Assembly (NCBI GenBank): GCA_964625235.1
Contig: CAZVAZ010000001.1
Coordinates: forward strand, 857 to 64,856
Source of the DNA: an uncultured Hyphomicrobiales bacterium
Lineage (GTDB): Bacteria; Pseudomonadota; Alphaproteobacteria; Rhizobiales; JAJFHR01
Direction: 5' to 3'
DNA length: 64,000 nucleotides
Shown here one piece after another: positions 7,277 to 48,914 of this stretch. The notes under the pieces were generated by a model that saw nothing but the letters and a program-made list of their open reading frames with translations, was not told the DNA's origin and ran no database searches. The first letter of the stretch is position 1, and each line of letters starts with the position of its first letter. Position numbers and translations under genes: made by a program.

Positions 7277-7290
7277 TTGACCTTGATCAA
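7277..7290. promoter_or_regulatory. FNR/CRP-type box TTGACCTTGATCAA upstream of the Crp/Fnr gene
   Basis: Matches the TTGAT-N4-ATCAA consensus at 9 of 10 positions. Centred about 61 nt upstream of ATG 7345. Confidence 0.6.
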
Positions 7291-7344: not shown

Positions 7345-8070
7345 ATGGAGTTTGCAATGCCGAATTTCACTGCCGCTCGTTATGGATGCGAGGCTGCAGG
7401 TTCTTTTACCTGTATGGCTTCTGCGGATGATAATGGCGATGCTCTTGCACGACTGCCTTTTCAGTTGACCAATATTGAAAATGCTTTGGAAAATGCCCGG
7501 CGTGCACCCTATCCAATTATCGTTATTTCCAGTGGTGCTGCTGGTTTGCAACATTTTCTCAAAGACGGCAGACGAACCATTTCCACAATATTTCTGGCAG
7601 GTGAAGTCCTGGATTTTAGTCAGATACGGGGAAGTGGCGGCTCATTATGTTGCCTCCTTCCGGGCCAGGCCCGGATGTTCAATGCAGTGGTTCTCGAAAA
7701 TCTGCGACAGGAAAATCCACAAGCCTGGTCGAGCCTGATGATTGGTAAATTCAGGTGTTGCAGTCAGACAACCAATCATTCTGTAGACCTTGCCCGCAAG
7801 TCGGCGGTTGAGAAGCTGGCTTCATTTATTTTTGAATGCCGCAACCGCCAGACTGCAGAGCGTGGCAAACTGATAAACCTGATTTTAAACCGAATTGATA
7901 TTGCTGATTATATGGGGTTGAGACCGGAAACACTTTCACGTGCTTTCACCAAACTGAAACGGTTAAAAATGATAGCCTGCGAGTGCGGTGATTATATTCA
8001 TATTCTCAATGAGCCGGCCTTGCGGCAAATTGCAAATGGCGCAGCCGATGAGTTTGGCTGTGCTGTTTGA
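7345..8070 (+). CDS. Crp/Fnr-family transcriptional regulator
   Basis: cNMP-binding-like middle region and C-terminal HTH RIDIADYMGLRPETLSRAFTKLKRLKMI carrying the E-x2-SR recognition motif that FNR-type proteins use on TTGA half-sites. Confidence 0.85.
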   Translation: MEFAMPNFTAARYGCEAAGSFTCMASADDNGDALARLPFQLTNIENALENARRAPYPIIVISSGAAGLQHFLKDGRRTISTIFLAGEVLDFSQIRGSGGSLCCLLPGQARMFNAVVLENLRQENPQAWSSLMIGKFRCCSQTTNHSVDLARKSAVEKLASFIFECRNRQTAERGKLINLILNRIDIADYMGLRPETLSRAFTKLKRLKMIACECGDYIHILNEPALRQIANGAADEFGCAV

Positions 8071-8074
8071 GCAC

Positions 8075-9472
8075 TTATGCCCTTGCGGAAAACCCTGACC
8101 GGGTATTTGCGGGCGCCACCTGACCTACGTCAGACAGGTAACGGTTGATTTTGTTCGCGGTTGCACGCGCCTGTTCTATGCAACTGGCCACCGACACACC
8201 ACCCAGATAATTCCCGGTAACATATAGTCCAGGCCGACGCTGGTGCAAAGCCTCTAGGGTTGAAACTTTATCGCTGTGTCCAATCTCATACTGCGGTAAA
8301 CTGCGGGCCCATTGACGACACCGGGAAAGAACGGGTTGACCACTGATTCCCAGCAGACCTGACAGCTCACGGTGTACCAGATGGCTGAGTTCATTGCTGT
8401 TCAGGCAAGCTGCATCATGGTTGCAACTGCCGCCCACATAGGCAGAAATTGAGACAAATCCATCCGGTGCCCGATTGGCAAACATGGTCGAAGGAAACTG
8501 TGCGCCGTTGATAATACCGCCTGTCCCCGCCACGCTCAAAAATCCCAGACTATCGAGAGGATGGCTAACCTGCTGGCGGGCATAGGCCAGAAACACAACG
8601 CTAAGGGGTGGAGCATCAATCTCAGCTGCGGCGGTTGCTGCTGGCTCATCCAACGGCTCAAGCAGGCTGGCGGCGACGTGAGGCTGAACGGCAAAGACAA
8701 TTGTTCTGGAAGTCAGATTACCTGATCTGTGGGTCTCGATCCTGTAGCCTTGCGGGTGATTTGAAACGGATTTGACTGCTGTTGCGGTTTTAATGCAACC
8801 GGGCATCGCGGTTGCCAGGGTTCTTGGCAAAGTTCCAACACCATCGCGAAACGAAAACAACCGTTTACCTGGCTCACTGCCTTGTCTGGCGTGAAGTATA
8901 CCTCGGGTGACAGAGCCAAACTCCTGTTCCATTTTCATCAATTTGGGAAAGGCTGATTTCAAGGACAGGTTGTGACTGTCTCCGGCAAATATTCCAGCCA
9001 CCAGCGGTGCCATGATTTTGTCGGCAAACTCGATACCAAAACGGCGGCATACAAAGGCGTGAATGCTTTCATCTTCGTCATTTGCTTTGCGCGGGCGCAA
9101 TATCTCTGTGATGAGACGGAACCGGCCACGAAGAGACAAATAGGGCGAAAGCAGGAAACCAGTGCGGTTAATTCCGATACCGTGCAGGGTGCCACCCTGG
9201 CGCAGGTAGCGTTTGCGTACATCATTGCCCAGGTCCAGCCGCTGGTTTTCAATATCGAGGTTTTGTGTCAACTCAAGCGCCTGAGGCACCAGGGTGTTGA
9301 GTGTGGTGGGACCATGTTCCATCAGGAAACCATTGATGCGCTGGGATATGGCGTTGCCGCCAACGGTTTGCTGGCGTTCCAGAACAATGACCCGGCGGCC
9401 GCATCGCTGCAGGTCATAAGCTGTGGTCAGGCCGGAAATTCCACCGCCGATTATGGCAACGTCGTAAGTCAT
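8075..9472 (-). CDS. hemY: HemY-type protoporphyrinogen/coproporphyrinogen oxidase-like FAD enzyme
   Basis: N-terminal dinucleotide fold YDVAIIGGGISGLTTAYDL...VLERQQTVGGN, a typical length of 465 aa, and the C-terminal LYVTGNYLGGVSVASCIEQA motif. ATGA overlap with the upstream radical-SAM gene. Confidence 0.75.
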   Translation of the reverse strand: MTYDVAIIGGGISGLTTAYDLQRCGRRVIVLERQQTVGGNAISQRINGFLMEHGPTTLNTLVPQALELTQNLDIENQRLDLGNDVRKRYLRQGGTLHGIGINRTGFLLSPYLSLRGRFRLITEILRPRKANDEDESIHAFVCRRFGIEFADKIMAPLVAGIFAGDSHNLSLKSAFPKLMKMEQEFGSVTRGILHARQGSEPGKRLFSFRDGVGTLPRTLATAMPGCIKTATAVKSVSNHPQGYRIETHRSGNLTSRTIVFAVQPHVAASLLEPLDEPAATAAAEIDAPPLSVVFLAYARQQVSHPLDSLGFLSVAGTGGIINGAQFPSTMFANRAPDGFVSISAYVGGSCNHDAACLNSNELSHLVHRELSGLLGISGQPVLSRCRQWARSLPQYEIGHSDKVSTLEALHQRRPGLYVTGNYLGGVSVASCIEQARATANKINRYLSDVGQVAPANTRSGFSARA

Positions 9473-10743
9473 GACAGCCCGGGCCTTTTGATGCCCGGTG
9501 GCAGGCCATTTTTGAACCGCTCTTTGGCCAGATGCGAAAGGTCATCTGCCGTCACAATTGACCCGCCCTTTGAGCGCACATCCGCCTCCACCCGGTTTTT
9601 AACCATGCGGCGAACGAAACCGGGTATCCGGGCAACGCGTTGTTCAGCATCTTGTGTCCAGTTGAGTGTTGCTTCTCCCGGCTTCAGGACTTCGATAATT
9701 GCCCCGTTTTGCGGCTGGTATGAACACAGGAAATCTTCTCCCATGAGATTGTTTGAGCGCGCCAGCGGCCGTGCGCGACAACCACCACACAGTTTTTGAT
9801 ATTCACAGATCCCACATCGTCCTTCCAGTTGAGGCTGGCGCAGGGCTGTGAAAATCTCACCATCATTCCAGATGTCGGAAAAACTGCTGTGACGCAAAGA
9901 CCCGCCGGAGGTTTCTATAAACGGGCAGGGGGTAACCTCGCCTTCCGGCGTCACGCGGGCATATCGAGTGCCGGCAATACAGCCGCCGGCTTCATAACCA
10001 TGGGCCATGGTGATCGGCCATTCCGGGTCGAGCTCCAGCGCCAGTCGCTTGAAATGCGGGGCGCACTTAGCGCGTACCATCAATTGTTTTTCATCGTGGG
10101 CAGCCTCGACCACGCGCTTGAGCACCTTGTCGTAATTTTCAATTGAAATATCGGTATATTTCTCACCGCGACCGGTGCACACCAGAAAAAATACATTGAG
10201 CACCAAAGCTTGCGCCTGCCGGGCAAAACTGATCATGTCGTCAATTTCACCGGCCGTATGATCAGTAACCGAGAAATGTATCTGGAAAGCCAGGTTCTCT
10301 TTGCGGCAGGCATCAATGGCCGCCATGGTTTTCAACCAGGCGCCTTTGCGACCGCGAAAATCATCATGTTTTTGCGGATCAAGTGAATCTATACTCAACC
10401 CTATGCCTGCAACGCCGGATTTTTTGAGGCTTTTCACCCGGTCAGATGTCAAAGTGATGCCGTTGGATCCGATAACGACCATCAGCCCGAGCCCGCTGGC
10501 GTGGGCCGCGAGTTCCTCGATGTCCGGGCGCAACAGTGGCTCACCGCCGGTCAAAACAATCATGCATTCCGGCCCAACGTCGGCAATATCACTGATGGCC
10601 TTTTTAACTTCGTCGGTGGACAATTCATCGGTGCTGCCGTTTTTTAGAATTTCGGCATCAAGATAACAATGGGCGCATGAGAGATTACATCGTTTTGTCA
10701 GATTGAAGGCGACAAGAAAAGGAGCGTCTACCGGTCTAGTCAT
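9469..10743 (-). CDS. Radical SAM/SPASM protein (NirJ/AhbC/AhbD-like) with a C-terminal PCP_red-like domain
   Basis: CNLSCAHCY (C-x3-C-x2-C). Cys-rich SPASM region GGCIAG...TPCPF...GRCGICEYQKLCGGCRARP. C-terminal NWTQDAEQRVARIPGFVRRMVKNRVEADVRSKGGSIVTADDL resembles the BchB/ChlB C-terminal domain. Confidence 0.8.
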   Translation of the reverse strand: MTRPVDAPFLVAFNLTKRCNLSCAHCYLDAEILKNGSTDELSTDEVKKAISDIADVGPECMIVLTGGEPLLRPDIEELAAHASGLGLMVVIGSNGITLTSDRVKSLKKSGVAGIGLSIDSLDPQKHDDFRGRKGAWLKTMAAIDACRKENLAFQIHFSVTDHTAGEIDDMISFARQAQALVLNVFFLVCTGRGEKYTDISIENYDKVLKRVVEAAHDEKQLMVRAKCAPHFKRLALELDPEWPITMAHGYEAGGCIAGTRYARVTPEGEVTPCPFIETSGGSLRHSSFSDIWNDGEIFTALRQPQLEGRCGICEYQKLCGGCRARPLARSNNLMGEDFLCSYQPQNGAIIEVLKPGEATLNWTQDAEQRVARIPGFVRRMVKNRVEADVRSKGGSIVTADDLSHLAKERFKNGLPPGIKRPGLS

Positions 10744-12397
10744 TATTTAACTCGGTTGCACCGGGCTCCGGGCACATGGCTTTTCGCGCTTTGGCAAATC
10801 CACCTTCGGCTACTTCACCGTCAACGCGGGTTGCACCATTTGCGCGTACATAGTCTTCAATGGTCTGTCTGGCTTTAGCCCGAAATATTTCCGGCACTCT
10901 TTGCAATCGCGCCAGACAGGCTGCTGCCCACTCCAGTTCCGTGTGGCAAGTCTCGGCAACAAAGGGTTCCACGTGCTGCGGCAATACCTCGGTGGCGGCA
11001 TCACGCCGGGCGGATTTTTCCGCTCTCAGGCGAATATTTTCCTTCACCGACTGATCGTTCAGTGTGGTCAGTATGGCAGTTGCCGCGGCATTCCAGGCGA
11101 GTGGTTCGAAACCATCGCTAACGGGTGTTTCACTGCCTTCAGTATTGCCGCCAGGCATCATTTTTTTCATCACGTCTTCAACAAAACGGCTAGTGATGAA
11201 TGTATGTCCCTCTGCGTGGGCCTGGCGAATAACCGAGGTGCGGGCGATACCGCGGACAAAATCGGGTGCGCGCGACATCATCGCATCGGCTTCTTCAGAC
11301 CACATGATGGTTTCTTCAGCGATAACATCAAGCGAGGGATAATGGGTCTTTTGACCAATCCAGATGTGACAGGGTGCCACCCTCAACAGGTTTTCCGTAT
11401 TGCCGCCGATGTCGAGTCCTTCATCAGCATGGACGCCAACTTTGCCCACCATCAACAAGCTCGCTTCAACTCTTTCGAGGTATTTTCGGATGGCCTGAAA
11501 CGGTTTTCCTGAAACCAGTTCACAGGTGATGTTGACGCCTTCTTCTTCAGCTACAGTTTTGGCGATGGCAAGATGCGATTGGTAGATTTTTGCAATACCA
11601 TCATCGATCAGTTCCTCGTGCAGCTGTTCCTGCTCTTTGAAACGAAATACCTTGCCCGCCTCATCAGAGAGAACACCGGCAATCTTGTTAAAGGCAACAT
11701 AGTGATAATAAGGATCGTAAGCGGCAACCGCGTGCACATCTGCGCCGGTTTGACGGGCAATCATCAAAGCCGATTTGAGAACCCCGAATGACTGGGGCGA
11801 GCCGTCAATTCCGACAACTATCGGCCCGTCACCAATGCTCATTTTGCGGTGCTTGATCACCAGCACATCAATTGGCGCGCGCCGTACAACGCGTTCACAA
11901 ACGCTGCCGATAATACTGCCTGCAACCGCTCCCAGCCCGCGAGAGCCTAAGGCGAGCACGTCAAATTCACCGGTTTTGGCAGCATCAATGATGCAGGTGT
12001 AGTTTTTGCCTTCGGGACTTAACCTTTTGAAGTTTACATCGGCATTTTTACATTTTTCCTGTGCGTTATCATGATAGCTGTCGGAGATGATACCAAGACC
12101 CTTGCCAATCAGGTCTTCATGCACATCACGCTGATGTTCCATTTCGGTTTCATAGCGATACCGTTCCGGCAATCCGCCTTCCATCTGCTTGAAACGCCGG
12201 TCGTGCATTTTAGCGGCGTAGGCATGAATGCCGATTATGGTTCCATTGATCGGCTTGACCAGTTTGATAGCTTCGAGAACTGCCTGATTGGCGAGATCTG
12301 ATTGATCAAGGGCGACAAGAATATTGTTCAGGCAAACCGGGGCTGAGCTGATCTGTTCATCAGCAATTTTTTCATTAAGCGCCAATGCTGTAGTCAT
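10736..12397 (-). CDS. Tandem universal-stress-protein (Usp) domains fused to three PCP_red-like repeats
   Basis: Two Usp modules (ILVALDQS...GSRGLGAVAGSIIGSVCERVVRRAPIDVLVIK; IVVGIDGS...LLMVGKVG). C-terminal repeats include MWSEEADAMMSRAPDFVRGIARTSV... and LEWAAACLARLQRVPEIFRAKARQTIEDYVRANG.... ATG 12397 has the SD GGAGCAAAAT; the track start 12433 would overlap the upstream mini-ORF. Confidence 0.7.
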   Translation of the reverse strand: MTTALALNEKIADEQISSAPVCLNNILVALDQSDLANQAVLEAIKLVKPINGTIIGIHAYAAKMHDRRFKQMEGGLPERYRYETEMEHQRDVHEDLIGKGLGIISDSYHDNAQEKCKNADVNFKRLSPEGKNYTCIIDAAKTGEFDVLALGSRGLGAVAGSIIGSVCERVVRRAPIDVLVIKHRKMSIGDGPIVVGIDGSPQSFGVLKSALMIARQTGADVHAVAAYDPYYHYVAFNKIAGVLSDEAGKVFRFKEQEQLHEELIDDGIAKIYQSHLAIAKTVAEEEGVNITCELVSGKPFQAIRKYLERVEASLLMVGKVGVHADEGLDIGGNTENLLRVAPCHIWIGQKTHYPSLDVIAEETIMWSEEADAMMSRAPDFVRGIARTSVIRQAHAEGHTFITSRFVEDVMKKMMPGGNTEGSETPVSDGFEPLAWNAAATAILTTLNDQSVKENIRLRAEKSARRDAATEVLPQHVEPFVAETCHTELEWAAACLARLQRVPEIFRAKARQTIEDYVRANGATRVDGEVAEGGFAKARKAMCPEPGATELNND

Positions 12398-12414
12398 ATT
12401 TTGCTCCTGCGATT

Positions 12415-12525
12415 TTATCCGTACAGCAGCCAATAGCCAACAATCAAAGCTATAACTGCAACATTTACAGCCGCACCAGCCAGTACAAAACCGTCAAAGG
12501 CATTAAGCTTTTTCTTGGGTGTCAT
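12415..12525 (-). CDS. 36-aa single-pass membrane mini-protein
   Basis: Manual translation: MTPKKKLNAFDGFVLAGAAVNVAVIALIVGYWLLYG. Basic N-terminus plus one TM helix. It fits exactly between the cupredoxin and Usp genes. Below the track size cutoff. Confidence 0.5.
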   Translation of the reverse strand: MTPKKKLNAFDGFVLAGAAVNVAVIALIVGYWLLYG

Positions 12526-12551: not shown

Positions 12552-13289
12552 TCAGAATGACAGGTCAATTTTGGTGTCTGCGCCAGCAGTGACCTTTACC
12601 TTGCCACTCTTGATCTCACCTAAAAACCCCTGCCACAGCCGAATTTTGTATTCGCCGGGCGGTACGTTATCGATGGTGAATTCACCGTTTTCACCAACAA
12701 CAGCATAATATGGGTTTGAGGCAACAAACATATAGGCGTGCATGAAGTCATGTGCGTCGCACTCAATTTTCATGCCAGCGCCTTTGCGCATTTTTATTTT
12801 TTTGGTTACTTTGTCCCCGGCGTTGGGCTGCGATACGTTTATTGCCGTGCGTCGCGCCCTGCCGATAAGTTCGTAGGTATGAATATTATGCAGGGTTTCG
12901 TCCGAATTCATGGCGGTCAGATTTCCACCATTCGCTATCACTGAGAAGGCAGGAGTAAATTCGCATTTTTTCTGATTGAGAGTTACATTCATCAACTCTT
13001 TCGGAAATGCCTTGCCCTGCTTGACCTTGTAGAGAAAGACAACTGCATTTTTTACTGTGCCGTTTTCTATTATAACAAAGGGAACGGTTCGATTACCTTC
13101 ACCGCAGATTTGCGTATCCTTGGAAATGGTGAATATTTTTGATTTTTCAACAGCGCTGCCTGCCAGGACTTTTCCCGAAATACTGCCACCGTCGGTGACC
13201 TCTATTTCCGTGTACTTTTTGGCTTGAGCCAGTCCGGTAAAACCGACCAGTGCAACTGTGCAAAGCATCCCTTTAAACAGTTTATTCAT
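12552..13289 (-). CDS. Secreted cupredoxin (amicyanin-like type-1 copper site) flanked by carboxypeptidase-regulatory-like Ig segments
   Basis: Signal peptide MNKLFKGMLCTVALVGFTGLAQA. Candidate Cu ligands are HNIH and C-D-A-H-D-F-M (C-x2-H-x2-M, as in amicyanin). C-terminal GEFTIDNVPPGEYKIRLWQ. Confidence 0.65.
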   Translation of the reverse strand: MNKLFKGMLCTVALVGFTGLAQAKKYTEIEVTDGGSISGKVLAGSAVEKSKIFTISKDTQICGEGNRTVPFVIIENGTVKNAVVFLYKVKQGKAFPKELMNVTLNQKKCEFTPAFSVIANGGNLTAMNSDETLHNIHTYELIGRARRTAINVSQPNAGDKVTKKIKMRKGAGMKIECDAHDFMHAYMFVASNPYYAVVGENGEFTIDNVPPGEYKIRLWQGFLGEIKSGKVKVTAGADTKIDLSF

Positions 13290-13324: not shown

Positions 13325-15490
13325 TCAGGCAACGGCTTGAATATCTCCATTGTCCGAATGGCTGAAAAGATCACTAAGAGCTTCGATAGCTACCAGCCAT
13401 ATCCGCTTTTTATCCTCATCCTTGAGAATTTTTAGATATTTATCCGCCGCTTCATTTGCGTTCCAGCCCTTGAGCATGGCGACAATATCGCGGCGGTGCA
13501 TACCATCATGCGCCAGGGTTAATTCAATAAGAATATCCATTTGTGAGCGCCGGCAGGCAAGGGCTTGAGCAGCGGCAATTCGAACCCCGGAATAATTATC
13601 TTCCAGTGCCAGCAACAAGCTCTCCACATGACCTTTCTTGCGACCAAGTGCTGTGACGGCTTCCCGGCGAACATGCACATCTTCATCACCGCACAACTCA
13701 ATAAGGGTTTCTTCAACATCTTTGCCTTTGATGTATGCAAGACAGCGTGCGCTGAGCATTCGAATAAGGCGATCCTGGTGTTGTGTTTCTGTTCGGATTG
13801 CCGGGTACAGGCGTTTTTTCAACTTGCCTCGTGCAGTTCCGATGAGAGCCAGGCTTTCCAGGCAGGCCTGTTTGAGCTCAACGTCATCATCTTCAAGGGC
13901 CTGATTCAGCACCCGGGTTATCCCAGGAAAATCAAAGTCACCCAGCAGACAGGCGGCAAACCGGCGGACATCTTCATGGGGGGCCACCTTGACGTCCAGC
14001 GATACCTTGCTTTTTCTCATTGCCCGCGATTTTGAGATTTTGATGAACTTTTTATCGTCTTCAGAAAGTTCAACTTCCTCAGCTTCCGGCTTTTCTTCCT
14101 CGCCCGGTTCGGTGCGAATTCCATCGCGCAATATCTGGTCCAGTGTCGAAGTGGCCGGGGGTTGTTCTTGGGGTGCAGCAGCCTCAACGTCTTCTGGCGC
14201 TGCTTCTTCTGTGGCGTCACTTTCCTCGACCGCCTCAACAAGTTCTCCGCGAAGGGCTGCCAGGAGACTGTCACCGGCTCTGTTTGGCCATTTGCCTGAG
14301 GCGGCAATTTTTGCCAGGGCAGACATAGTTGAGATACGGATCTGTCTGTTGCTGTTTGCCACAGTATCCAACAGGTAGGGCAAGCCAGCATCGTTGAGCA
14401 GGCTAAGCGCTTCAATTAAGCCAAGTCGAAAAACCAGTGGTTGTTCAGAGTTTTGCAGTGCCCCGCCGAGACTCTTTGCTGATGCCTCTCCGATCAGGGT
14501 TGCCCAGGCAACAGCTGCGGCACCGGCAACATCCGGTATGCCGACAATCGCCGTGCGAACAACTTCTGAAAAGCCTTCTTTTTTGAACGCTTGAGGTTCA
14601 GCGGCAATTGATCTGAAGATTGTCTGCCTGACTTCCGCAGATTTGTCCGACAATCTCTCCATCGCCAGATCAGGTTCTTTTGCGCTTATTGTTTTGGCAA
14701 TCAGGATGCGCACATCAACGTGTTCGTCACTGAAAAACGCGGCAAGACGCGCATCTTCGGGATCAGTATCAATTATTTTCTCGAGGGCAACATAGCGTAC
14801 TTCACCTGCTTTATCGGCCAAACATTTTTGCAAAAGATCATCAATTTCGGCAGATTGCCCCGGCTCCAAAACCGAACAGACCCGGCGGCGCATGCGTGCA
14901 TCACCCTGGTTATATAATGAGGTCAGTGCGGCCACACCTTCGGTGCCCAGTTGGACCAGAACCGGGACTGTAACCTGCGTCAGGTCCTGACCTTCGTCGT
15001 TTTTCAATTCGTTCATAATTACCGCTACGGATTCAGCTGTTCCAATTTTACCGAGCGCCTTGATTGCTGCCAATTGTATGTCCAGCCAGTCATCCCAGCC
15101 CGTAGCGTAATATTCGTCTCCCCAGTTTATCTCTTCATCCCGGCCGGCGACCATTGTGTGCAACCAGGGGACAACCTGTCGATGGTTTGCTTTGGCAAGC
15201 AATTCAATGGCAGACAGTTTGACTTCAGGGCAGGGATCACCGAGAAGATTTTCCATAATGGCACCGGCGGCTTGTGTCTCTTCGAGTTCCAAGAGGGCGG
15301 CTGCGGCATCAGTGCGTACATCTTCATCCTCATCCAGGAGTGCCTGTTGCAGCACTGGTCCGGCTCCGGGATGAGCAATTTTTCCCAACGCTGTTGCAGC
15401 GGCACAACGATGAATATCCACCCCCGACAAAAGGAGTTTGCTCAGTTGGGTAAATGCTCTTTCTTTTGCAGATTTTGCTCTTGTTACCAT
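13325..15490 (-). CDS. HEAT-repeat (PBS-lyase-type) protein, 721 aa, cytoplasmic
   Basis: Many repeats of the D/E-x-VR-x-A-A-x-ALG type (DEDVRTDAAAALLEL, DVHVRREAVTALG, YSGVRIAAAQALA). Acidic linker near the middle. No signal peptide. Confidence 0.75.
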   Translation of the reverse strand: MVTRAKSAKERAFTQLSKLLLSGVDIHRCAAATALGKIAHPGAGPVLQQALLDEDEDVRTDAAAALLELEETQAAGAIMENLLGDPCPEVKLSAIELLAKANHRQVVPWLHTMVAGRDEEINWGDEYYATGWDDWLDIQLAAIKALGKIGTAESVAVIMNELKNDEGQDLTQVTVPVLVQLGTEGVAALTSLYNQGDARMRRRVCSVLEPGQSAEIDDLLQKCLADKAGEVRYVALEKIIDTDPEDARLAAFFSDEHVDVRILIAKTISAKEPDLAMERLSDKSAEVRQTIFRSIAAEPQAFKKEGFSEVVRTAIVGIPDVAGAAAVAWATLIGEASAKSLGGALQNSEQPLVFRLGLIEALSLLNDAGLPYLLDTVANSNRQIRISTMSALAKIAASGKWPNRAGDSLLAALRGELVEAVEESDATEEAAPEDVEAAAPQEQPPATSTLDQILRDGIRTEPGEEEKPEAEEVELSEDDKKFIKISKSRAMRKSKVSLDVKVAPHEDVRRFAACLLGDFDFPGITRVLNQALEDDDVELKQACLESLALIGTARGKLKKRLYPAIRTETQHQDRLIRMLSARCLAYIKGKDVEETLIELCGDEDVHVRREAVTALGRKKGHVESLLLALEDNYSGVRIAAAQALACRRSQMDILIELTLAHDGMHRRDIVAMLKGWNANEAADKYLKILKDEDKKRIWLVAIEALSDLFSHSDNGDIQAVA

Positions 15491-15553: not shown

Positions 15554-15567
15554 TTGACATATGTCAA
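15554..15567. promoter_or_regulatory. FNR-type box TTGACATATGTCAA upstream of the HEAT-repeat operon
   Basis: Perfect palindrome with a TTGA-N6-TCAA core, centred about 70 nt upstream of start codon 15490. Confidence 0.6.
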
Positions 15568-15628
15568 GTCTGATCTTTCTAAAATATCTGCGCATAGCCA
15601 TTGCTCGCATCGATTTGAACAATAAAAA

Positions 15629-15654
15629 ACCGGAAGAGATAAATCGCTTCCGGT
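15629..15654 (-). terminator. Intrinsic terminator after the molybdoenzyme gene
   Basis: ACCGGAAG-(10 nt)-CTTCCGGT hairpin flanked by an A-run and a T-run (AAAAAACCGGAAG...CTTCCGGTTTTTTTGTTTTT), 38 nt downstream of stop 15692. Confidence 0.8.
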
Positions 15655-15691
15655 TTTTTTGTTTTTCGACTTCAATCAATCGCGTTTGTGA

Positions 15692-18367
15692 TTACACCCC
15701 GATATCGCGCGGTGCAAAAGACATGGACCGGAACGTGTTCTTGTAAGGGGATATGCCGATTTTCTTGATCCTGGCAACGCCCATCTTGAAGTTGTAATTA
15801 CCACTCATCCAGTCAACAACGCGGCCTTCCAGTGCATTTGCAGGCTGTGATGTGTGAAGGAAATCCATATAAAGAACTCCTTTCTTTACCGCCCGGGTGA
15901 CCATGGCTACAGCGGTAACGGCTGCTTCACTGAACTCCACGTTGCCATTTTTCAACTGGCCGGAGAATTTATAATCGTCGCCTTCCACGCCAAGGACTGT
16001 TTCCTTCAGTGAGGGCACACGATCAGAGTAGATCATAACCATATCACCGCTTTCAATGCCACGGGCTTTGGCATCTTCGGTGTTGATTTCAACCCAGTTT
16101 TCAGGCCAGCGCTGCACGATATAGGGGCGACGGCGATCATCAAAACCTGACTGCCAGCGTTCATTTGAACGACCCGATGTGCACCACAATTCGTCATCCT
16201 TGGGTTTCATCCATTCCCAGTAATCCGAAAACCAGGACCATTGCGCCTTTTCAAGATTGCAACGCCCGGTCTGGGAGTTGAAGTGTGTGGTCTTCTTGTT
16301 GACCATGTTGGCTCCGGCAGGGCCGGTTGGCGACAATTTGCGTTGCGTATCGTGCAGTCGTTTTGTGCCAACCAGAGTGCCATCATCCAACATTGACACC
16401 GGGCCCTGAATACCATTGGTGCCAAATTCCCTGAGTTTTTGATGCAGGGTTTTGCCTTCACGTTTGGCTGCCACGTTGATCATGTTGTAATCTTTACGGC
16501 TGCCGCGTGAAAACCGTGCGGTTTCTTCCGCAACTTCGTTGGAGTTTTTCCAGTCAAAGCCTTTAAAGCCCATGCGGGTGGCCAGTTGAGCAATGATCCA
16601 CCAATCCGGTTTTGATTCACCCGGCGGATCATAGAACTTCTGGTACAGCCGCATGCGGCGCTCACCATTGGCGCGCATAAAGTCCTCTTCACCCCAGGTT
16701 GCAGCCGGGAAGATAATGTCCGCAAACTGGTTGCCAATCGGATCGACCAGATAGATGTCCTGGTTAATGATCACCATGCCGCCTGAATCCGCCCGTTTTT
16801 TCAGGGTTTCGATAATCCTCTCTTTATTGAGGGAGCGCACCTGATGAGGATTACCGTTGGTGAGTTCTTGAAACTTGGCGGCCAGCAGGAATGATCCACA
16901 CATGGACTGGATCCAGGTGGTTCCGATGACATGAGCCATGCGGGTGTGACCGGCCATGGTCCAGGTATCGGTGTCAAGTGCCCGACGGCGACGTCCGGGC
17001 AGTTTCATCGGCGATTTGTTGCGTGGATACTTGCCACCTCTGACGCCGCCACGCTGATGCCCGCCGCCGCGACCGATCATCTGGCCAGGTCTGCCGCCGG
17101 CACCGACGATGATGCCCAGAGCAGAGATGGCGACGGTATTACCGGTATTATTTGACCAGTAAAAACCCTTTTCGATCATGATGGATGTTTTCGGGCGCTT
17201 GCCTTTGACAGGTTTTGCCATCATTTCAGCGGCAAGCTGAATTTTCTTTGCATCAATACCCGAAATTTTCGACGCATTTTCCAGCGTGTAATCATCTTGT
17301 GACAACAGCCATTCTTTCCAGTCATCAAAGCCATCGGTCTGGAACTGGCCCCAGGTGGTGCGCCATTGCCACGGCGTGTTACGCGTGCCCTGGCCAAATC
17401 CTGAAGATGATCCCCACTTGTCGTTGACCCAGTTTTTTATCCATTCCTTGTCCTGCCAGCCGTTTTCTACGATGATACGGGCAATTGCATTGACCACAAG
17501 AAGGTCGGTGCCCGGAGTTACATCAAGCCACAGGCCACCATTTTGCTCTATATAGGCGACACCAGCAGTGCGGCGTGGGACCATCATGATGGTTTTCTGT
17601 CCGTTTTGAATGCCTTTCATAATCCACTGGGTGAACAGGATTGTTTTGGTTTCATAAGGATCGGTTCCGCAGATAAACAGTGTTTCTGCATCGCGCCAGT
17701 CTTCATAAGAAGGTGCAAAGTTGTCAAAACCTGCGTTGCGGAAGCCCGGCGTTGAAGATACGTCCGAAGGAGTGTCATGAAAGGTGAAGTTCGCCGTGTT
17801 AATGGATCCGAGCGCGAATTTAGTGATCGCGTAGGTGTTTTCTATAAATTGATAGGAATATGTTTTGACGCCGTAGGCCAAAGGTCCGTGTTTTTCGATC
17901 ACATGTTTGGCAACAGCGGCGGCCACATCAAGAGCCAGATCCCAGGTCACCGGTTGAAGAATGCCGTGAATACGCATTAACGGTGTGGTCAGGCGATCAC
18001 GGGTGGGCGTTTGGGGATTGTAACATTTTTGTGCGATACAGCCACCGCGAAGCGATGAATCACCGTCCGTATTAACCGCTTCAGTGTCCTTGTCAGGCAG
18101 GATTACCACATGGTGGGGTTCATCTTCGTGAAGCACGATATTATGCTGGTTGGGGGCAACCCAGGGCCCGAGCACTTCCACGGGGAAATCGACACCAAAG
18201 GCATTCTCTGAAGCTTTGGCCCCCCCCCGCCTGCCGCCTTTTACCGGCCAGCGATAAACCTTGTAACCGCAGGCGACGACGCAATAATCGCACGCTGTTG
18301 AAATGACATCCGCATCCTTGGGGGGCAGGGGTACATCTGTTTCTGGAATATAATAAGGTGTTGACAT
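15692..18367 (-). CDS. idrA: AioA/IdrA-family molybdopterin oxidoreductase large subunit (putative iodate reductase catalytic subunit)
   Basis: N-terminal 3Fe-4S-type motif CDYCVVACGYKVYRW (C-x2-C-x3-C) followed by ENAFGVDFP. Collinear with arsenite-oxidase-type large subunits through to the C-terminus. GRGGGHQRGG segment. The Idr call rests on the Rieske partner and two peroxidases directly upstream. Confidence 0.7.
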   Translation of the reverse strand: MSTPYYIPETDVPLPPKDADVISTACDYCVVACGYKVYRWPVKGGRRGGAKASENAFGVDFPVEVLGPWVAPNQHNIVLHEDEPHHVVILPDKDTEAVNTDGDSSLRGGCIAQKCYNPQTPTRDRLTTPLMRIHGILQPVTWDLALDVAAAVAKHVIEKHGPLAYGVKTYSYQFIENTYAITKFALGSINTANFTFHDTPSDVSSTPGFRNAGFDNFAPSYEDWRDAETLFICGTDPYETKTILFTQWIMKGIQNGQKTIMMVPRRTAGVAYIEQNGGLWLDVTPGTDLLVVNAIARIIVENGWQDKEWIKNWVNDKWGSSSGFGQGTRNTPWQWRTTWGQFQTDGFDDWKEWLLSQDDYTLENASKISGIDAKKIQLAAEMMAKPVKGKRPKTSIMIEKGFYWSNNTGNTVAISALGIIVGAGGRPGQMIGRGGGHQRGGVRGGKYPRNKSPMKLPGRRRRALDTDTWTMAGHTRMAHVIGTTWIQSMCGSFLLAAKFQELTNGNPHQVRSLNKERIIETLKKRADSGGMVIINQDIYLVDPIGNQFADIIFPAATWGEEDFMRANGERRMRLYQKFYDPPGESKPDWWIIAQLATRMGFKGFDWKNSNEVAEETARFSRGSRKDYNMINVAAKREGKTLHQKLREFGTNGIQGPVSMLDDGTLVGTKRLHDTQRKLSPTGPAGANMVNKKTTHFNSQTGRCNLEKAQWSWFSDYWEWMKPKDDELWCTSGRSNERWQSGFDDRRRPYIVQRWPENWVEINTEDAKARGIESGDMVMIYSDRVPSLKETVLGVEGDDYKFSGQLKNGNVEFSEAAVTAVAMVTRAVKKGVLYMDFLHTSQPANALEGRVVDWMSGNYNFKMGVARIKKIGISPYKNTFRSMSFAPRDIGV

Positions 18368-18384
18368 AACTCTCTTCTCCCGAA

Positions 18385-18969
18385 TTAGCTGTGCAGATTG
18401 TTTTCGCGACCAAAAATAAGTCCGAAAATGCCGGTGGCATAAACACTGTCACCTTCGATTTCGAGCAAAATTTGCGGCAGACTCTGGTAAGCCTGACCCG
18501 AGATCAAAATGCCGTGGCGGGTGAGGTCATAAGTTGAAAGATGAAGCGGACAGGCTCCAAGTGATTTGGTTTCAGCCTTGTAACTTCCCTCCAGTGTGCT
18601 GCCCTGGTGGGTGCAGGCATAATTGTATGCGACAATATCCTGGTCCTTACCTAAACCGCCGCCGGCTTTAACGCCGAGCTTTACCACCATGTTCTCAGAA
18701 TAGGCGCCCTCATCAGGGTAGTTGAAGTCAAACGGTTCATCCTGCTTCAGTTCAGATAATTTACAGATATACTTACGCGGGTAATTGGTGATCTGGGCGG
18801 GCACACTTTTCGCCTCGGCAGTCCCAGCGTTCAAGGTTATCATCACGGTGGCGGTTGTCGCCCCCGTACCAATTAGAAAGTTGCGGCGTGAAACCAGACA
18901 CTTGTGACCGATTTGTTTTGCCAATTTCTTTCTTGACGAGATGTTTTCATAGACAGTTGTTTTGGCCAT
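18385..18969 (-). CDS. idrB: AioB/IdrB-family Rieske [2Fe-2S] small subunit with Tat signal
   Basis: Twin-arginine signal SRRNFLIGTGATTATV. Rieske ligand motifs CTHQG and CPLH. AioB-like C-terminus GLIFGRENNL. Confidence 0.75.
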   Translation of the reverse strand: MAKTTVYENISSRKKLAKQIGHKCLVSRRNFLIGTGATTATVMITLNAGTAEAKSVPAQITNYPRKYICKLSELKQDEPFDFNYPDEGAYSENMVVKLGVKAGGGLGKDQDIVAYNYACTHQGSTLEGSYKAETKSLGACPLHLSTYDLTRHGILISGQAYQSLPQILLEIEGDSVYATGIFGLIFGRENNLHS

Positions 18970-18981
18970 TTTGGGTCCCCT

Positions 18982-20136
18982 TTAATTTTTTGCCGGATTG
19001 GGCAATGGCGCATATGGTGGAAGTTTTGGTGGTTCGATTACCAGTTCCTCCCCGCTGAAGGCATCAAGGAAAGCCACCAGATCTTCGACTTCTTTTTCAG
19101 ACAGTCCCAGCGGCTTGACTAAAGGCGATTTGCTTTTCGCCATGGTGCCATCGGTAAAATCATTTTCGCCGCCACCCTGGTTGTAAAATTCAACAACCTC
19201 GGTCAGATCCCAGAACGCACCATTGTGCATATAAGGAGCGGTGTACTTGAGATAACGCAGAGGGGCGGTCCTGAACTTGCCCATGTCGACCTTTTGCTTG
19301 GTGCGGTAATAGAGACCTGCATCGTCTTTTATTTTACGATACATTTCCTGCGTCACGCCTTTGGCATATTGCTCATAGCGGAAGGTGATTTGGGCCAGGC
19401 CGTCTTCTTCCCACCGTTCGGAAGGAGGTACACCCAGGTTATAATATTTCTGGTCGGTGGCAAGAGCGCCATTATGGCAGGCAATACAACCAGCCTTGCC
19501 ATTAAACAGCTCCATGCCGCGTACCTGCTGAGTGCTGAGGGCTTTTTTGTCACCACGCAAATATTTATCCAATGGTGTATTGTTGTGGATCATCGTGCGT
19601 TCGAACGATGCAATGGCCTTCCAGGCATCTGAAATCAACGGCCATTCAGTGCCAAATGCTTCTTTGAAAAGTTTGCGGTATTCCGGGATGAAAGCCAGTC
19701 GTGCTTCCATCACATCATTTTCACCATTGCCGGCAACGGCCCCTTTGGCGGCACTTGGAGCCTGCTTTTCCAAAGACGAGGCTGCACCGACCCAGAACAG
19801 TTTCAACAGGTAAGCAGAGTTTACCACCGTTTGACTGTTGCGCCAGTGAACTGTGCCGGGATAACCGCGTGACAATGCATCACCAAACCCCCAACCCTGA
19901 TCGGGCTCGTGACAGGTAACACAGCCGGTGGATGCATCACCACCAAGCCGGGGGTCCCAGAATAACATCTTGCCAAGCTTGATTTTAACTTCCGACTGCT
20001 TGTTATCCAGTGGGATGGGAGGATCTCCCAGAGGTGCTAAAGGTGGCACGTCTGATCCCGCATATGCCATGCCAGCAGTGATGGCAGTGATGAGCGCTCC
20101 AGCAAGGAGACCCGATATTTTCTTTGTATATTTCAT
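18982..20136 (-). CDS. Dihaem cytochrome c peroxidase (CCP/MauG family), IdrP-like
   Basis: Signal peptide. Two haem c motifs (CVTCHEPDQGW and CIACHNGA). FRTAPLRYLKYTAPYMHNG family motif. Confidence 0.85.
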   Translation of the reverse strand: MKYTKKISGLLAGALITAITAGMAYAGSDVPPLAPLGDPPIPLDNKQSEVKIKLGKMLFWDPRLGGDASTGCVTCHEPDQGWGFGDALSRGYPGTVHWRNSQTVVNSAYLLKLFWVGAASSLEKQAPSAAKGAVAGNGENDVMEARLAFIPEYRKLFKEAFGTEWPLISDAWKAIASFERTMIHNNTPLDKYLRGDKKALSTQQVRGMELFNGKAGCIACHNGALATDQKYYNLGVPPSERWEEDGLAQITFRYEQYAKGVTQEMYRKIKDDAGLYYRTKQKVDMGKFRTAPLRYLKYTAPYMHNGAFWDLTEVVEFYNQGGGENDFTDGTMAKSKSPLVKPLGLSEKEVEDLVAFLDAFSGEELVIEPPKLPPYAPLPNPAKN

Positions 20137-20154
20137 CGAATTATCTCCCTTGAT

Positions 20155-21276
20155 CTAGTTTTTTACAGCGCGCCAGTTTTTAATGGCGGTATAATTGGTG
20201 GGGATTTTTTTCTTCCAGACAAATTCCTTGGTGTTCAGTGGATCGCCTGTCAGAGCCTCCAGGAAGTCAACAAGATCCTGTTGCTCAACGAATGTCAGTT
20301 TGAGCGGCTTTAAATCCGGGTTTTTGTTTTTGTCTTCACCGCCACCTTGATTGTAAAAAGCAACCACTTCAAATAGCGATTTAAACATGCCGTTGTGCAT
20401 ATAAGGTGCTGTGAATTTCAATTCGCGCAAAGTCGGTGTAACGAACTTTCCAACATTGGAGCCATCGACTTTGGGGTTGATAATACCTGCACCGACGTCA
20501 CGGCGGATATTCATGATATTTTCAATGCCCATAAATGTGCCAAAGGCTACATAAGTCATATGACGCATTGGATCAGACCAGATTTCCGGATTTTCCGGAA
20601 CACCCAGATTATATGCTTTGTCGTTGGTGAAATTTGCCCCGCTATGGCAGGCGGCACATTGAGCTTTGCCTTTAAACAAGTCATATCCGCGTTTGGCCGA
20701 TGCTGTCATGGACCCTTTGTCAAAGGGGGAGTTGCGCGAAGTCAGTGTTTTCAAATACTCAGGTATGGCTTTTCGGACCGCACCGTTGGAAGGCTCGCCA
20801 TAGCCAGCATCTTTAAACATCTTTACATATACAGGGTCCTGCTTGAGGCGCTCCTGCATCAGGCGCATGTCCATGTTCATGATGTAATCTTCAGTGATCA
20901 TCTCGCGTGTGACATCATTCAGATTGGTGCCAATGCGACCGTCAAGGAACCAGTTTTTACGGACTGCGGTATTTATCAAGGTAGGTGTGTTGCGAAACCC
21001 TTTTGAACCCGGATAGGCTTTGGACAAAGCCAGACCGTCGCTGAAGCCTTTGTCAGGCTGGTGGCAGGTGGCACAACTGATTGCGGCATCGCCGGACAGC
21101 CTTGGGTCAAAAAATAAACGTTTGCCCAGTTCGGCTTTTTTGGCATCGACCTTGATCTGTTTTATTGGCCCCTGACCGTCCTGGCCAGCAATTACGGTAC
21201 CCGATAAAACAAAAAAACCAATCAGCCCCACGGACAGCGCCAGCATACATTGTGTTTTGCTACCGAACGTCTTCAT
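20155..21276 (-). CDS. Dihaem cytochrome c peroxidase (CCP/MauG family), IdrP-like paralog
   Basis: CATCHQPDKGF and CAACHSG haem motifs, plus FVTPTLRELKFTAPYMHNG. ATG 21276 has the SD AAGGGAG and begins a signal peptide (MKTFGSKTQCMLALSVGLIGFF). The track start 21378 lies inside the FNR box. Confidence 0.85.
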   Translation of the reverse strand: MKTFGSKTQCMLALSVGLIGFFVLSGTVIAGQDGQGPIKQIKVDAKKAELGKRLFFDPRLSGDAAISCATCHQPDKGFSDGLALSKAYPGSKGFRNTPTLINTAVRKNWFLDGRIGTNLNDVTREMITEDYIMNMDMRLMQERLKQDPVYVKMFKDAGYGEPSNGAVRKAIPEYLKTLTSRNSPFDKGSMTASAKRGYDLFKGKAQCAACHSGANFTNDKAYNLGVPENPEIWSDPMRHMTYVAFGTFMGIENIMNIRRDVGAGIINPKVDGSNVGKFVTPTLRELKFTAPYMHNGMFKSLFEVVAFYNQGGGEDKNKNPDLKPLKLTFVEQQDLVDFLEALTGDPLNTKEFVWKKKIPTNYTAIKNWRAVKN

Positions 21277-21364
21277 GGCGTTACTCCCTTTTATTCCTGG
21301 TGAGTCGACGAGACCTCGTCCACAAATGCTGCGGTACTGTCGCTGGCAATGCGATATGTGGTCA

Positions 21365-21378
21365 TTGACGAATGTCAA
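21365..21378. promoter_or_regulatory. FNR-type box TTGACGAATGTCAA upstream of the peroxidase/Rieske/molybdoenzyme operon
   Basis: TTGAC-N4-GTCAA, centred about 95 nt upstream of ATG 21276. Confidence 0.55.
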
Positions 21379-21460
21379 GAGTGCGAGTGTAAACGTGCGT
21401 TTAAGTGAAAAAAATCAGGGGATTTTGTCTTTTTTCCAAAATTCCGAACAGCCTTATAGG

Positions 21461-23728: not shown

Positions 23729-23730
23729 GG

Positions 23731-24564
23731 TTATTCCGGCAGGTTTTTTATATAATCAATGATCAGGTTCAATTCGCTCACCCGCATCTGCTCGCCAAAG
23801 TCATCCGGCATTATTTCCGCCTCAAAGCCTTCGGTGATTTCTGCATTGGGGTTGATAATTGCTTCGGCAATCTTGGCATCATCCATTTTTTTGGAAAGAC
23901 CATTCAATTTGGGGCCGATATCGGCCTCAGACCCCTCCAGATCATGACAGGCACCGCAACTGAACTTATCCAACGCTGCAACCGCTGTGGTTGCGGGGCC
24001 TTCTTCGTCATCACCGTCTTCACTGCTGGTAACAGGTGTTTCATCCGCACTTGGCAGGGGTACTGTGGGTGTGAGCCCGGCCCTGTCCTGCATAAAAGCG
24101 GTTATTGCATTTATCTCAACAGCGGACAGTGAGATTGGTGGCGAGTCAATTTTTGGCATTTGACTGATCGTATCGCCGGAGCCCTTTTTGCCAAATCCAG
24201 CAACCACATATATCGAAGGATCCAGCATTGATTCATGGAGATACTCGCCAATCGCTTCTGCCCCCTGTTTGGTTTTGGCAGCACCGGTGTAACGCGGATC
24301 AGCAAGGCGCTCGGGGAGAACCCTGGCGAGATCGAGTGCCAGAAGATCAGGAGCGCGAAGCCGCTTGTTGTGACACAGGGTGCAGGTGCCTTTACCGGAA
24401 AACAGTTGTTCCCCAAGCGATACCATGCCCGTCATATTGAGGCTGGCCGTATCAATTTCCTCTTCTGCGGGCGGGTCTCCCTGCACTTGCGGCAATATAT
24501 TGGCAAACCCGGTGTAAATGAGCAGGACAAAGAGCGAAAAACCCATAACGCGAAGGAAGGTCAT
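23731..24564 (-). CDS. Membrane-anchored dihaem cytochrome c
   Basis: N-terminal TM helix. CTLCH and CGACH haem motifs separated by an acidic linker. 4-nt overlap with the CydA-like gene. Confidence 0.8.
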   Translation of the reverse strand: MTFLRVMGFSLFVLLIYTGFANILPQVQGDPPAEEEIDTASLNMTGMVSLGEQLFSGKGTCTLCHNKRLRAPDLLALDLARVLPERLADPRYTGAAKTKQGAEAIGEYLHESMLDPSIYVVAGFGKKGSGDTISQMPKIDSPPISLSAVEINAITAFMQDRAGLTPTVPLPSADETPVTSSEDGDDEEGPATTAVAALDKFSCGACHDLEGSEADIGPKLNGLSKKMDDAKIAEAIINPNAEITEGFEAEIMPDDFGEQMRVSELNLIIDYIKNLPE

Positions 24565-26672: not shown

Positions 26673-26686
26673 TTGACCAAGATCAA
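26673..26686. promoter_or_regulatory. FNR-type box TTGACCAAGATCAA upstream of the bd-like/cytochrome c operon
   Basis: TTGAC-N4-ATCAA, centred about 75 nt upstream of ATG 26604. Confidence 0.6.
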
Positions 26687-38356: not shown

Positions 38357-38358
38357 AT

Positions 38359-40644: not shown

Positions 40645-40752
40645 CTCATTCTCCTTTAATTTTCCGGCCCGGTTCAGGCACACAGATGGCCACCGGGCGA
40701 AATGCAACAACATTACACCGTAAATACGGAATTCTTATCAGTTATGCCCCTC

Positions 40753-41616: not shown

Positions 41617-41625
41617 GATGTTCTC

Positions 41626-44272: not shown

Positions 44273-44275
44273 AGA

Positions 44276-45322: not shown

Positions 45323-45433
45323 TTGGTATTCCTCCCTTTTTTATGCTGCTCGATGAATGGCCCGATATTATTGTATGGACCGGTTTTTAAACTCTCGTCA
45401 CTTGTTTGATCGCGTCGGGGATTTTCCTCCACC

Positions 45434-47148: not shown

Positions 47149-47169
47149 AAACTATATAGCTTTATAGCT

Positions 47170-48875: not shown

Positions 48876-48914
48876 TGACCCTCCAAACCCTCCTGTACCT
48901 GTTGGTTGCATTGC

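Follow-up and report, generated by a model that had tools for sequence, protein, structure and literature searches.

A set of three overlapping genes on a stretch of DNA from an uncultured Hyphomicrobiales bacterium is, on balance, probably a low-oxygen-induced module for the last steps of protohaem synthesis, in which we infer the roles of all three proteins from their sequences, modelled folds and gene neighbourhoods. The stretch, hereafter the window, comprises 64,000 nt (contig CAZVAZ010000001.1 of assembly GCA_964625235.1, forward-strand positions 857-64,856). The genes encode a universal stress (Usp) protein carrying PCP_red repeats, a radical S-adenosylmethionine (SAM) enzyme of the SPASM type that also ends in a PCP_red domain, and a HemY-family oxidase. 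The module is a real, conserved and apparently unstudied variant of known haem chemistry with a new accessory architecture, namely PCP_red on both the enzyme and its Usp partner, and not a new kind of system. Completion of haem under scarce oxygen is only partly solved for bacteria that rely on HemY. The three minus-strand open reading frames (ORFs), described in a first-pass annotation of the same DNA, were recovered at the same positions:

10736-12397, minus strand: Usp-PCP_red protein, 553 aa (Pfam Usp 126.3 bits, PCP_red 65.3 bits)
9469-10743, minus strand: radical SAM/SPASM enzyme with C-terminal PCP_red domain, 424 aa (Pfam and NCBIfam matches, AhbD/NirJ2 lineage)
8075-9472, minus strand: HemY-family flavin adenine dinucleotide (FAD) oxidase, protoporphyrinogen-oxidase-like, 465 aa (TIGR00562 276 bits)

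The translational coupling claimed for these genes could be read directly from the sequence. The stop codon of the radical SAM gene and the start codon of hemY share an ATGA at 9469-9472 (GTCATGACT), and the end of the Usp gene overlaps the start of the radical SAM gene by 8 nt at 10736-10743 (ATGACTAG). Profile searches with hidden Markov models (HMMs), which the first-pass annotation had proposed, matched Usp, PCP_red, SPASM, Radical_SAM and Amino_oxidase, and its tetrapyrrole theme is supported by these domain matches and by the family matches set out below.

The proteins of the module

Its family matches and cysteine pattern place the radical SAM enzyme in the AhbD lineage (AhbD/NirJ2), as a divergent member with an added PCP_red domain. 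Pfam models matched it at 86 bits (Radical_SAM), 32 bits (SPASM) and 47.5 bits (PCP_red). An NCBIfam scan aligned it end to end with NirJ2 (TIGR04055, 300.3 bits) and AhbD (TIGR04545, 286.2 bits), with weaker matches to NirJ (170 bits), AhbC (164 bits), WgkB (126.5 bits) and PqqE (124 bits), and a Nitrospiraceae homologue scored 317 bits with AhbD and 329 bits with NirJ2. The trusted cut-off of both leading models is 500 bits. The CX3CX2C motif of radical SAM enzymes is present as C19-X3-C23-X2-C26 and is invariant in 25 family members. The SPASM cysteines, C227-X27-C255-X17-C273-X36-C310-X2-C313-X5-C319-X2-C322-X17-C340, are all eight invariant, and their spacing fits exactly the full AhbD SPASM motif, CX20-33CX17CX36-37CX2CX5CX2CX17-35C (PMC10452713). 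The modelled fold was closest to SkfB, PqqE and SuiB in Foldseek searches, and AhbD models are likewise most similar to SuiB (PMC10452713). The earlier description of the enzyme as NirJ/AhbD-like thus holds, with AhbD and NirJ2 as its best families and with the cysteine spacing of AhbD, though below the cut-offs. HemN_C was absent from the Pfam matches of the enzyme, no HemN model stood among the 25 best of 80 NCBIfam matches, and an exact look-up of the protein returned no record.

The second shared element is the PCP_red domain (PF08369), whose Pfam gathering threshold of 32.5 bits was exceeded on both the Usp protein (65.3 bits, in 2 stretches) and the radical SAM enzyme (47.5 bits), which bears out its earlier identification on the two proteins. 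BchB equivalog models of NCBIfam also gave local matches, at their C-terminal ends, to PCP_red units of the module. The individual units are as follows:

11168-11302, minus strand: PCP_red repeat 1 of the Usp protein, aa 366-410 (best Pfam stretch 366-408, or 378-420 of the 565-aa ORF; own HMM, independent E-value (iE) 2.7e-25; structural model)
10961-11095, minus strand: PCP_red repeat 2 of the Usp protein, degenerate, aa 435-479 (near-register HMM match, iE 0.0075; family conservation; structural model)
10796-10930, minus strand: PCP_red repeat 3 of the Usp protein, aa 490-534 (local match of a BchB model, 471-542 of the 565-aa ORF; own HMM, iE 1.9e-23; structural model)
9526-9660, minus strand: PCP_red domain of the radical SAM enzyme, aa 362-406 (Pfam 47.5 bits over residues 362-403; modelled helices)

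An HMM built from the radical SAM repeat alone picked up the Usp repeats at 366-410 (iE 2.6e-7) and 490-534 (iE 2.5e-8), and met the middle unit at 435-479 about one residue off register (iE 0.0075). This middle repeat is strongly conserved in 27 homologues, with W435, A439, D448, N454, R458, E460, K461, R464, R465 and D466 invariant. In the AlphaFold models a strand-helix-helix-strand-helix unit is common to the three Usp repeats and the radical SAM repeat, the latter with confident helices at 364-370, 375-391 and 399-409. The "about three" repeats first reported on the Usp protein can therefore be kept, two by HMM and a degenerate third by family conservation and the AlphaFold model. In crystal structures of dark-operative protochlorophyllide oxidoreductase, the C-terminal domain of BchB caps the protochlorophyllide substrate from the partner subunit; such capping is known for BchB only. 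Foldseek searches with the full models of the module proteins matched only Usp proteins or SPASM radical SAM enzymes.

The Usp gene starts at ATG 12397, which is preceded by GGAG; TTG 12433 was considered as a start and rejected in favour of it. The upper limit in the first-pass annotation, 12525, lies outside the Usp gene: a conserved membrane ORF of 36 aa starts there with its own ATG. A 100% identical 553-aa protein is on record (P0121), only on short Joint Genome Institute (JGI) metagenome contigs. The Pfam Usp match (126 bits) covers two domains, and the model superposes on tandem Usp structures including TTHA0350 with ATP, with template-modelling (TM) scores of up to 0.8 relative to the target. 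Domain 1 carries G151-x2-G154-x9-G164-S165, in which the three glycines are invariant and the last position is Ser or Thr in the family, and domain 2 carries G-x2-G-x9-G-G.

The oxidase matched Pfam Amino_oxidase at 174 bits and TIGR00562 at 276 bits over residues 3-447, against a cut-off of 97.85 bits, and has the FAD-binding N-terminus IIGGGISG (GxGxxG) at residues 7-14. Its best solved relative is the protoporphyrinogen oxidase (PPO) of Myxococcus xanthus (2IVD, E 7.5e-56), and it aligned over its full length with the M. xanthus, tobacco and Bacillus subtilis enzymes, so that its earlier assignment as HemY-like is well founded. A gammaproteobacterial module HemY scored 245 bits with TIGR00562. 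R88 of the window protein aligns with R98 of tobacco PPO2 and R95 of M. xanthus, a position held by Ser in B. subtilis CgoX, and the Arg is invariant in 62 of 62 module HemYs. We take R98 of tobacco PPO2 to be a contact of the substrate propionate, as in the crystal-structure papers. By this residue, the oxidase looks more like a protoporphyrinogen oxidase than like CgoX. Between Alpha- and Gammaproteobacteria, the module HemYs share only 34% identity and resemble the M. xanthus or tobacco PPO at least as closely as each other; the corresponding radical SAM enzymes share 53%, a difference which fits a generic rather than a specialised PPO task. A further clue comes from locus L003, where a divergently oriented ferrochelatase adjoins the module and matches human FECH at 104 bits against about 49 bits for CpfC, and hence is of the protoporphyrin type. 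A ferrochelatase is also divergently adjacent to the module in L013.

Conservation, low-oxygen control and gene neighbourhood

At least 591 confirmed loci of the radical SAM-PCP_red family were found among species-representative genomes, together with thousands of metagenomic proteins. The hosts include Nitrospira and many Alpha- and Gammaproteobacteria of oxygen-minimum zones and hydrothermal sites. Our comparison covered 81 non-redundant loci, drawn from the Nitrospiraceae and from Alpha-, Gamma- and Zetaproteobacteria; the counts are biased toward the lineage of the window because the sampled loci are the closest relatives among the matches. The Usp-PCP_red gene lay directly upstream of the radical SAM gene in 67 of the 70 loci with room for it. 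HemY followed downstream in 59 of 71, the exceptions being nine Nitrospiraceae, two Zetaproteobacteria and one Paracoccaceae metagenome-assembled genome (MAG). Together with the gene coupling, this count upholds the pairing of an AhbD/NirJ-lineage enzyme with a HemY-family oxidase. In two unrelated MAGs the Usp and radical SAM proteins form a single reading frame (L056:2-3220 and L064:8279-11479), which runs from Usp-Usp-PCP_red into radical SAM/SPASM/PCP_red. An assembly error is possible in these two cases; taken at face value, the in-frame fusions point to a physical complex. Every examined radical SAM enzyme with an intact C-terminus had at least one PCP_red domain (one or three per enzyme), and complete Usp proteins had two to five, mostly three or five. 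In the Gammaproteobacteria/Burkholderiales loci L054, L055, L051, L057 and L071, the radical SAM enzyme is about 670-720 aa long with three PCP_red domains and the Usp protein mostly has five (three in L071). No Ahb-like genes were present among the Pfam-annotated neighbours of L001-L004 (10-kb flanks).

The Nitrospiraceae loci (L074:7734-11866, and L072-L084) have a rubredoxin-like domain between the PCP_red repeats of the Usp protein. A 170-aa CopD/DUF4149-like membrane protein (CopD 34.9 bits) follows the radical SAM gene in the position of HemY. It is very common in Nitrospira metagenomes, and the labels of its homologues read 'uncharacterized membrane protein' or 'putative copper export protein'; it matches HemJ only weakly (13.8 bits, E 0.046). 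One zetaproteobacterial locus (L070:1806-10143) reads ResB, Usp-PCP_red with five repeats, radical SAM enzyme, a stand-alone three-repeat PCP_red protein, DUF420 and a CcdA-like protein, a setting of cytochrome maturation with no HemY.

In the window, ORF lists and Pfam scans revealed a single co-directional gene string on the minus strand from 26318 down to 8075. It begins with a bd-like CydA relative, a cytochrome c and a multihaem/EB_dh cytochrome, continues with two di-haem cytochrome c peroxidases, a Rieske protein and an AioA-like molybdoprotein, and ends with a HEAT-repeat protein, the secreted protein p245, the 36-aa membrane ORF, Usp, the radical SAM enzyme and HemY. The features that bear on the control and composition of its last part are listed below:

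15618-15663, minus strand: hairpin with U-run, terminator-like (dG -19.6 kcal/mol, z -6.0, 0 of 200 shuffles as stable)
15554-15567, no strand: FNR/FixK-type palindrome TTGACATATGTCAA, a perfect palindrome 64 nt 5' of the HEAT ATG
13325-15490, minus strand: HEAT-repeat protein of phycobilisome (PBS)-lyase type, 721 aa (Pfam HEAT_2 150.7 bits, HEAT_PBS), first gene of the unit
12552-13289, minus strand: secreted p245, 245 aa (in 32 of 81 loci, alongside the HEAT protein and the module)
12415-12525, minus strand: 36-aa single-helix membrane ORF, MTPKKKLNAFDGFVLAGAAVNVAVIALIVGYWLLYG (FD.F.LAG..N..V...YW kept in 23 loci)
7345-8070, plus strand: Crp/Fnr-family regulator (HTH_Crp_2 50.6 bits), convergent with HemY

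The first-pass annotation had placed the module under an FNR box. A search with the strict consensus found none directly 5' of the Usp gene, while a relaxed pattern found the palindrome at 15554-15567, ahead of the HEAT gene that opens the same gene string; the claim needs correcting in that the box lies about 3 kb upstream, before the HEAT gene and not before Usp. It is a probable low-oxygen promoter element of the unit from HEAT to HemY. The hairpin at 15618-15663 lies 3' of the idrA-like molybdoprotein gene and before the palindrome, is flanked by an A-run and a U-run, and is possibly a bidirectional terminator; a consensus scan did not report it, the outer loop being longer than 8 nt. With a terminator-like hairpin after the molybdoprotein gene and a box before HEAT, the transcription unit is probably HEAT, p245, the 36-aa ORF, Usp, the radical SAM enzyme and HemY. 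TTGAY-N4-RTCAA boxes were rare, with 47 across 1.36 Mb of related loci, and about 22 of them stood less than 350 nt 5' of the gene that opens the module (HEAT, or Usp in loci without HEAT); this also holds for sets placed directly behind a bd-like cluster. Low-oxygen control of the module is thus supported, as a prediction from sequence, by positionally conserved FNR/FixK-type boxes across lineages. Further FNR-type boxes of the window lie at 26673 and 21365. The convergent Crp/Fnr-family gene, a candidate regulator of the module, has a box of its own (TTGACCTTGATCAA, 7277-7290) and is also a neighbour in L004, L006 and L085. It scores under the FixK/Fnr model cut-offs and shows only the helix-turn-helix (HTH) domain in Pfam, with no detectable cyclic nucleotide (cNMP)-binding domain and no FNR-type N-terminal cysteine cluster.

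Among the accessory genes, HEAT precedes the module in 29 of 81 loci, and its product gave weak NblB/CpcE matches. The p245 family has invariant C62 and C109 and the motifs HNIHTYE and ECDxHxFM, the latter resembling the C-x2-H-x2-M of amicyanin and a possible copper site; p245 had no cupredoxin match in Pfam. The 36-aa ORF is annotated as a gene in several metagenome records. Between it and Usp, some Alphaproteobacteria (L001:7447-8283 and nine other loci) carry a protein that resembles formylglycine-generating enzyme (FGE-sulfatase)/EgtB and has a membrane helix at its N-terminus; this protein is absent from the window.

The respiratory genes upstream (15692-26318) consist of the bd-like CydA relative, cytochrome c and multihaem/EB_dh protein, followed by an iodate-type block on the minus strand at 15692-21378 with Pfam matches to Molybdopterin plus Rieske_3 (the molybdenum subunit, 891 aa), Rieske and two CCP_MauG. 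Iodate reductase loci are defined by the synteny of an AioA-like molybdenum subunit, a Rieske subunit and two di-haem peroxidases, idrABP1P2 (Reyes-Umana et al., PMC8692401), and the window block has this arrangement. The molybdenum subunit scores above the cut-off of the arsenite-oxidase model TIGR02693 as well (406 against 359), so the iodate assignment is one of synteny alone. The iodate-reduction papers examined do not mention the module neighbours. Iodate-reductase (Idr)-like and/or bd-like/multihaem clusters lay within 10 kb of the module in 41 of the 51 loci whose upstream flank reaches 8 kb or more, and in many Rhodospirillaceae MAGs the set stands directly after the bd-like cluster.

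Family scans of the flanking genes identified no further haem gene elsewhere in the 64-kb window. A defence or mobile-element reading was considered and is unsupported, as the genes on either side gave no such family. A megablast search of plasmids with the module returned nothing, and tblastn found only distant TIGR04053-type enzymes (at most 37% identity, without PCP_red) and no plasmid-borne copy from a cultured organism. At 36896-50291 the window holds a sulfatase, DUF3604, TauD, an ABC transporter, a ComA-like phosphosulfolactate synthase, a GntR regulator, aconitase X and a biotin carboxylase, a cluster suggestive of organosulfonate metabolism with no relation to the haem module.

A proposed role in haem completion and its alternatives

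In the proposed mechanism the radical SAM enzyme, with SAM and three [4Fe-4S] clusters, would convert the ring A and B propionates of a coproporphyrin-type tetrapyrrole to vinyls without O2, and HemY would carry out the ring oxidation. The Usp-PCP_red protein would dock on the radical SAM enzyme, its three PCP_red units and the enzyme's own serving as small lids or holders for the tetrapyrrole by analogy with BchB, while the ATP-binding-type Usp domains may gate the hand-over or couple it to the energy state. The conserved Arg of HemY and the protoporphyrin-type neighbouring ferrochelatase tilt the order of steps to the classical one, with the radical SAM enzyme in place of HemN. In this weakly favoured order it would act on coproporphyrinogen III, the job of HemN, HemY on protoporphyrinogen IX, and an ordinary protoporphyrin ferrochelatase would follow. 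In Pseudomonas, hemN is FNR/Anr-controlled and adjoins anr and cbb3 oxidase genes; the set may adjoin haem-rich low-oxygen respiratory clusters for the same reason. We also consider, tentatively and as rather unlikely, that radical SAM-PCP_red plus Usp-PCP_red form a third class of coproporphyrinogen III decarboxylase beside HemF and HemN in Gram-negatives and Nitrospira, an AhbD-lineage SPASM enzyme retargeted to a metal-free porphyrinogen and dependent on a multi-lid, nucleotide-binding carrier.

Several points weigh against a role in protohaem completion. The radical SAM enzyme is far under the AhbD and NirJ2 cut-offs (286 and 300 against 500 bits), and its substrate is not readable from the sequence. 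HemY-type oxidases normally require O2 (PMC13564367), which is awkward for an anaerobic role, so that 'anaerobic' may really be micro-oxic. The tetrapyrrole-lid role of PCP_red outside BchB is a prediction by analogy. In Nitrospiraceae the module occurs without HemY, FNR box or respiratory neighbours. The respiratory linkage of the set (41 of 51 loci) is tighter than simple housekeeping requires, and the sample leans toward the closest relatives of the window.

The same enzymes could be ordered differently, HemY acting as CgoX, a ferrochelatase producing coprohaem and the radical SAM enzyme serving as a true AhbD in place of ChdC, that is, a Gram-negative version of the AhbD-containing pathway. 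This agrees with AhbD and NirJ2 being the nearest curated families and with the AhbD cysteine motif, with the known use of AhbD in organisms of the coproporphyrin pathway that have no further Ahb genes (PMC13564367, PMC7242693), and with the ability of certain HemYs to oxidise both protoporphyrinogen and coproporphyrinogen (PMC5095920). It is a serious rival, though less likely than the classical order, given that the R98/R95-type Arg is invariant in module HemYs where B. subtilis CgoX has Ser, that the L003 ferrochelatase matches protoporphyrin ferrochelatases twice as strongly as CpfC, that the radical SAM enzyme falls under the AhbD cut-off, and that Proteobacteria with the classical pathway are reported to lack HemQ and AhbD for the most part (PMC5095920). 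The CgoX plus AhbD pairing, put forward in the first-pass annotation as a hybrid of known pathways, would in any case not be new, AhbD being already described as a replacement for ChdC in some coproporphyrin-pathway Gram-positives (PMC13564367, PMC7242693).

Proximity to respiratory genes raises the further idea of a dedicated maturation pathway for a non-standard haem-type cofactor of the bd-like/EB_dh complex or of the iodate-reductase-like system, with HEAT, p245 and the 36-aa protein in delivery or insertion. The Idr-like and bd-like clusters within 10 kb, the Rhodospirillaceae arrangement, the accessory genes that travel with the set and the tailoring of haem precursors by NirJ-lineage enzymes (PMC7242693) all speak for it. 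However, the oxidase is an ordinary-looking PPO that would act on porphyrinogens and not on finished haems, the set has its own FNR box even after the bd-like cluster, and it also occurs beside ferrochelatase, beside the cytochrome c biogenesis genes ResB and CcdA, and alone in Nitrospiraceae. The existence of two different respiratory partner systems argues against one specific client. We regard this reading as improbable, and the original suggestion of cofactor tailoring for the neighbouring cytochromes or the bd-like protein found no direct support. Most SPASM enzymes are peptide maturases, the closest solved folds (SkfB, PqqE, SuiB) are among the points in favour of such a role here, and a conserved small ORF lies just upstream; the enzyme might thus modify the 36-aa product or p245, with PCP_red for peptide or protein recognition. 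Both of these candidates are missing from most loci that keep Usp, radical SAM enzyme and HemY, the NirJ2 and AhbD matches are well over those of the best peptide or cofactor maturases of that NCBIfam scan, PqqE (124 bits) and WgkB (126.5 bits), AhbD models themselves are most like SuiB (PMC10452713), the partner gene encodes a PPO and PCP_red has its homologue in the C-terminus of BchB, which makes a maturase very improbable.

We found nothing in the literature on this PF08369/radical SAM/Usp architecture, and no paper that connects haem synthesis with PCP_red or with the Usp partner. If the proposed function in haem completion is true, an enzyme-plus-carrier variant would be added to the map of haem pathways, PCP_red would gain a role outside protochlorophyllide reductase, the haem supply of iodate-reducing and bd-like respiratory systems under hypoxia would be explained, and the routine labels 'radical SAM protein' and 'universal stress protein' would be corrected. 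Should the third-class reading be true, PCP_red would have a general substrate-capping role outside chlorophyll synthesis.

Comparison with known systems

The closest known counterpart of the radical SAM enzyme is AhbD (TIGR04545), the haem synthase of the sirohaem-dependent pathway, with which it has in common the CX3CX2C motif, the eight-cysteine SPASM spacing and, by prediction, the O2-independent conversion of propionate to vinyl on rings A and B. Unlike AhbD, it ends in an additional PCP_red domain (in some Gammaproteobacteria, in three of them) and always has a Usp-PCP_red partner, its hosts are Proteobacteria and Nitrospiraceae and not archaea, sulfate reducers or Gram-positives, and its substrate may be coproporphyrinogen instead of coprohaem. 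With HemN/CgdH it likely shares the pathway step, radical decarboxylation, control by FNR-family proteins, low-oxygen respiratory neighbours and a nearby Crp/Fnr gene. It is not, however, a member of that family by sequence; HemN is without SPASM clusters, has HemN_C, and works alone without a PCP_red partner.

The module oxidase resembles known HemY/PgoX enzymes (M. xanthus 2IVD; tobacco PPO2 1SEZ) in its full-length alignment, FAD-binding N-terminus, TIGR00562 match and the R95/R98 Arg. In contrast to them, it shows only about 30-35% identity, stands in one operon with an oxygen-independent enzyme under an FNR-type box, and has its place taken by the CopD/DUF4149-like membrane protein in Nitrospiraceae. 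The coproporphyrin pathway of Gram-positives with AhbD for ChdC likewise uses a HemY-family oxidase and an AhbD-lineage enzyme without other Ahb genes; the module differs from it in the coupling of its genes in one operon, the PgoX-type Arg, the protoporphyrin-type neighbouring ferrochelatase and the Gram-negative hosts.

Like tandem universal stress proteins (Rv2623, TTHA0350 with ATP, UspE), the Usp protein of the module has two Usp domains and an ATP-type motif in domain 1, but it differs from them in its C-terminal PCP_red array, its obligatory association with a radical SAM enzyme, to which it is occasionally fused, and the rubredoxin-like insert of the Nitrospiraceae form. The homologous 45-residue unit of the module Usp and radical SAM proteins is that of the BchB/ChlB C-terminal domain (PF08369). 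In BchB this unit is joined to a nitrogenase-like body, whereas in the module it is detached from it and occurs in one to five tandem copies on the Usp protein, on the radical SAM enzyme or, in L070, as a stand-alone three-repeat protein.

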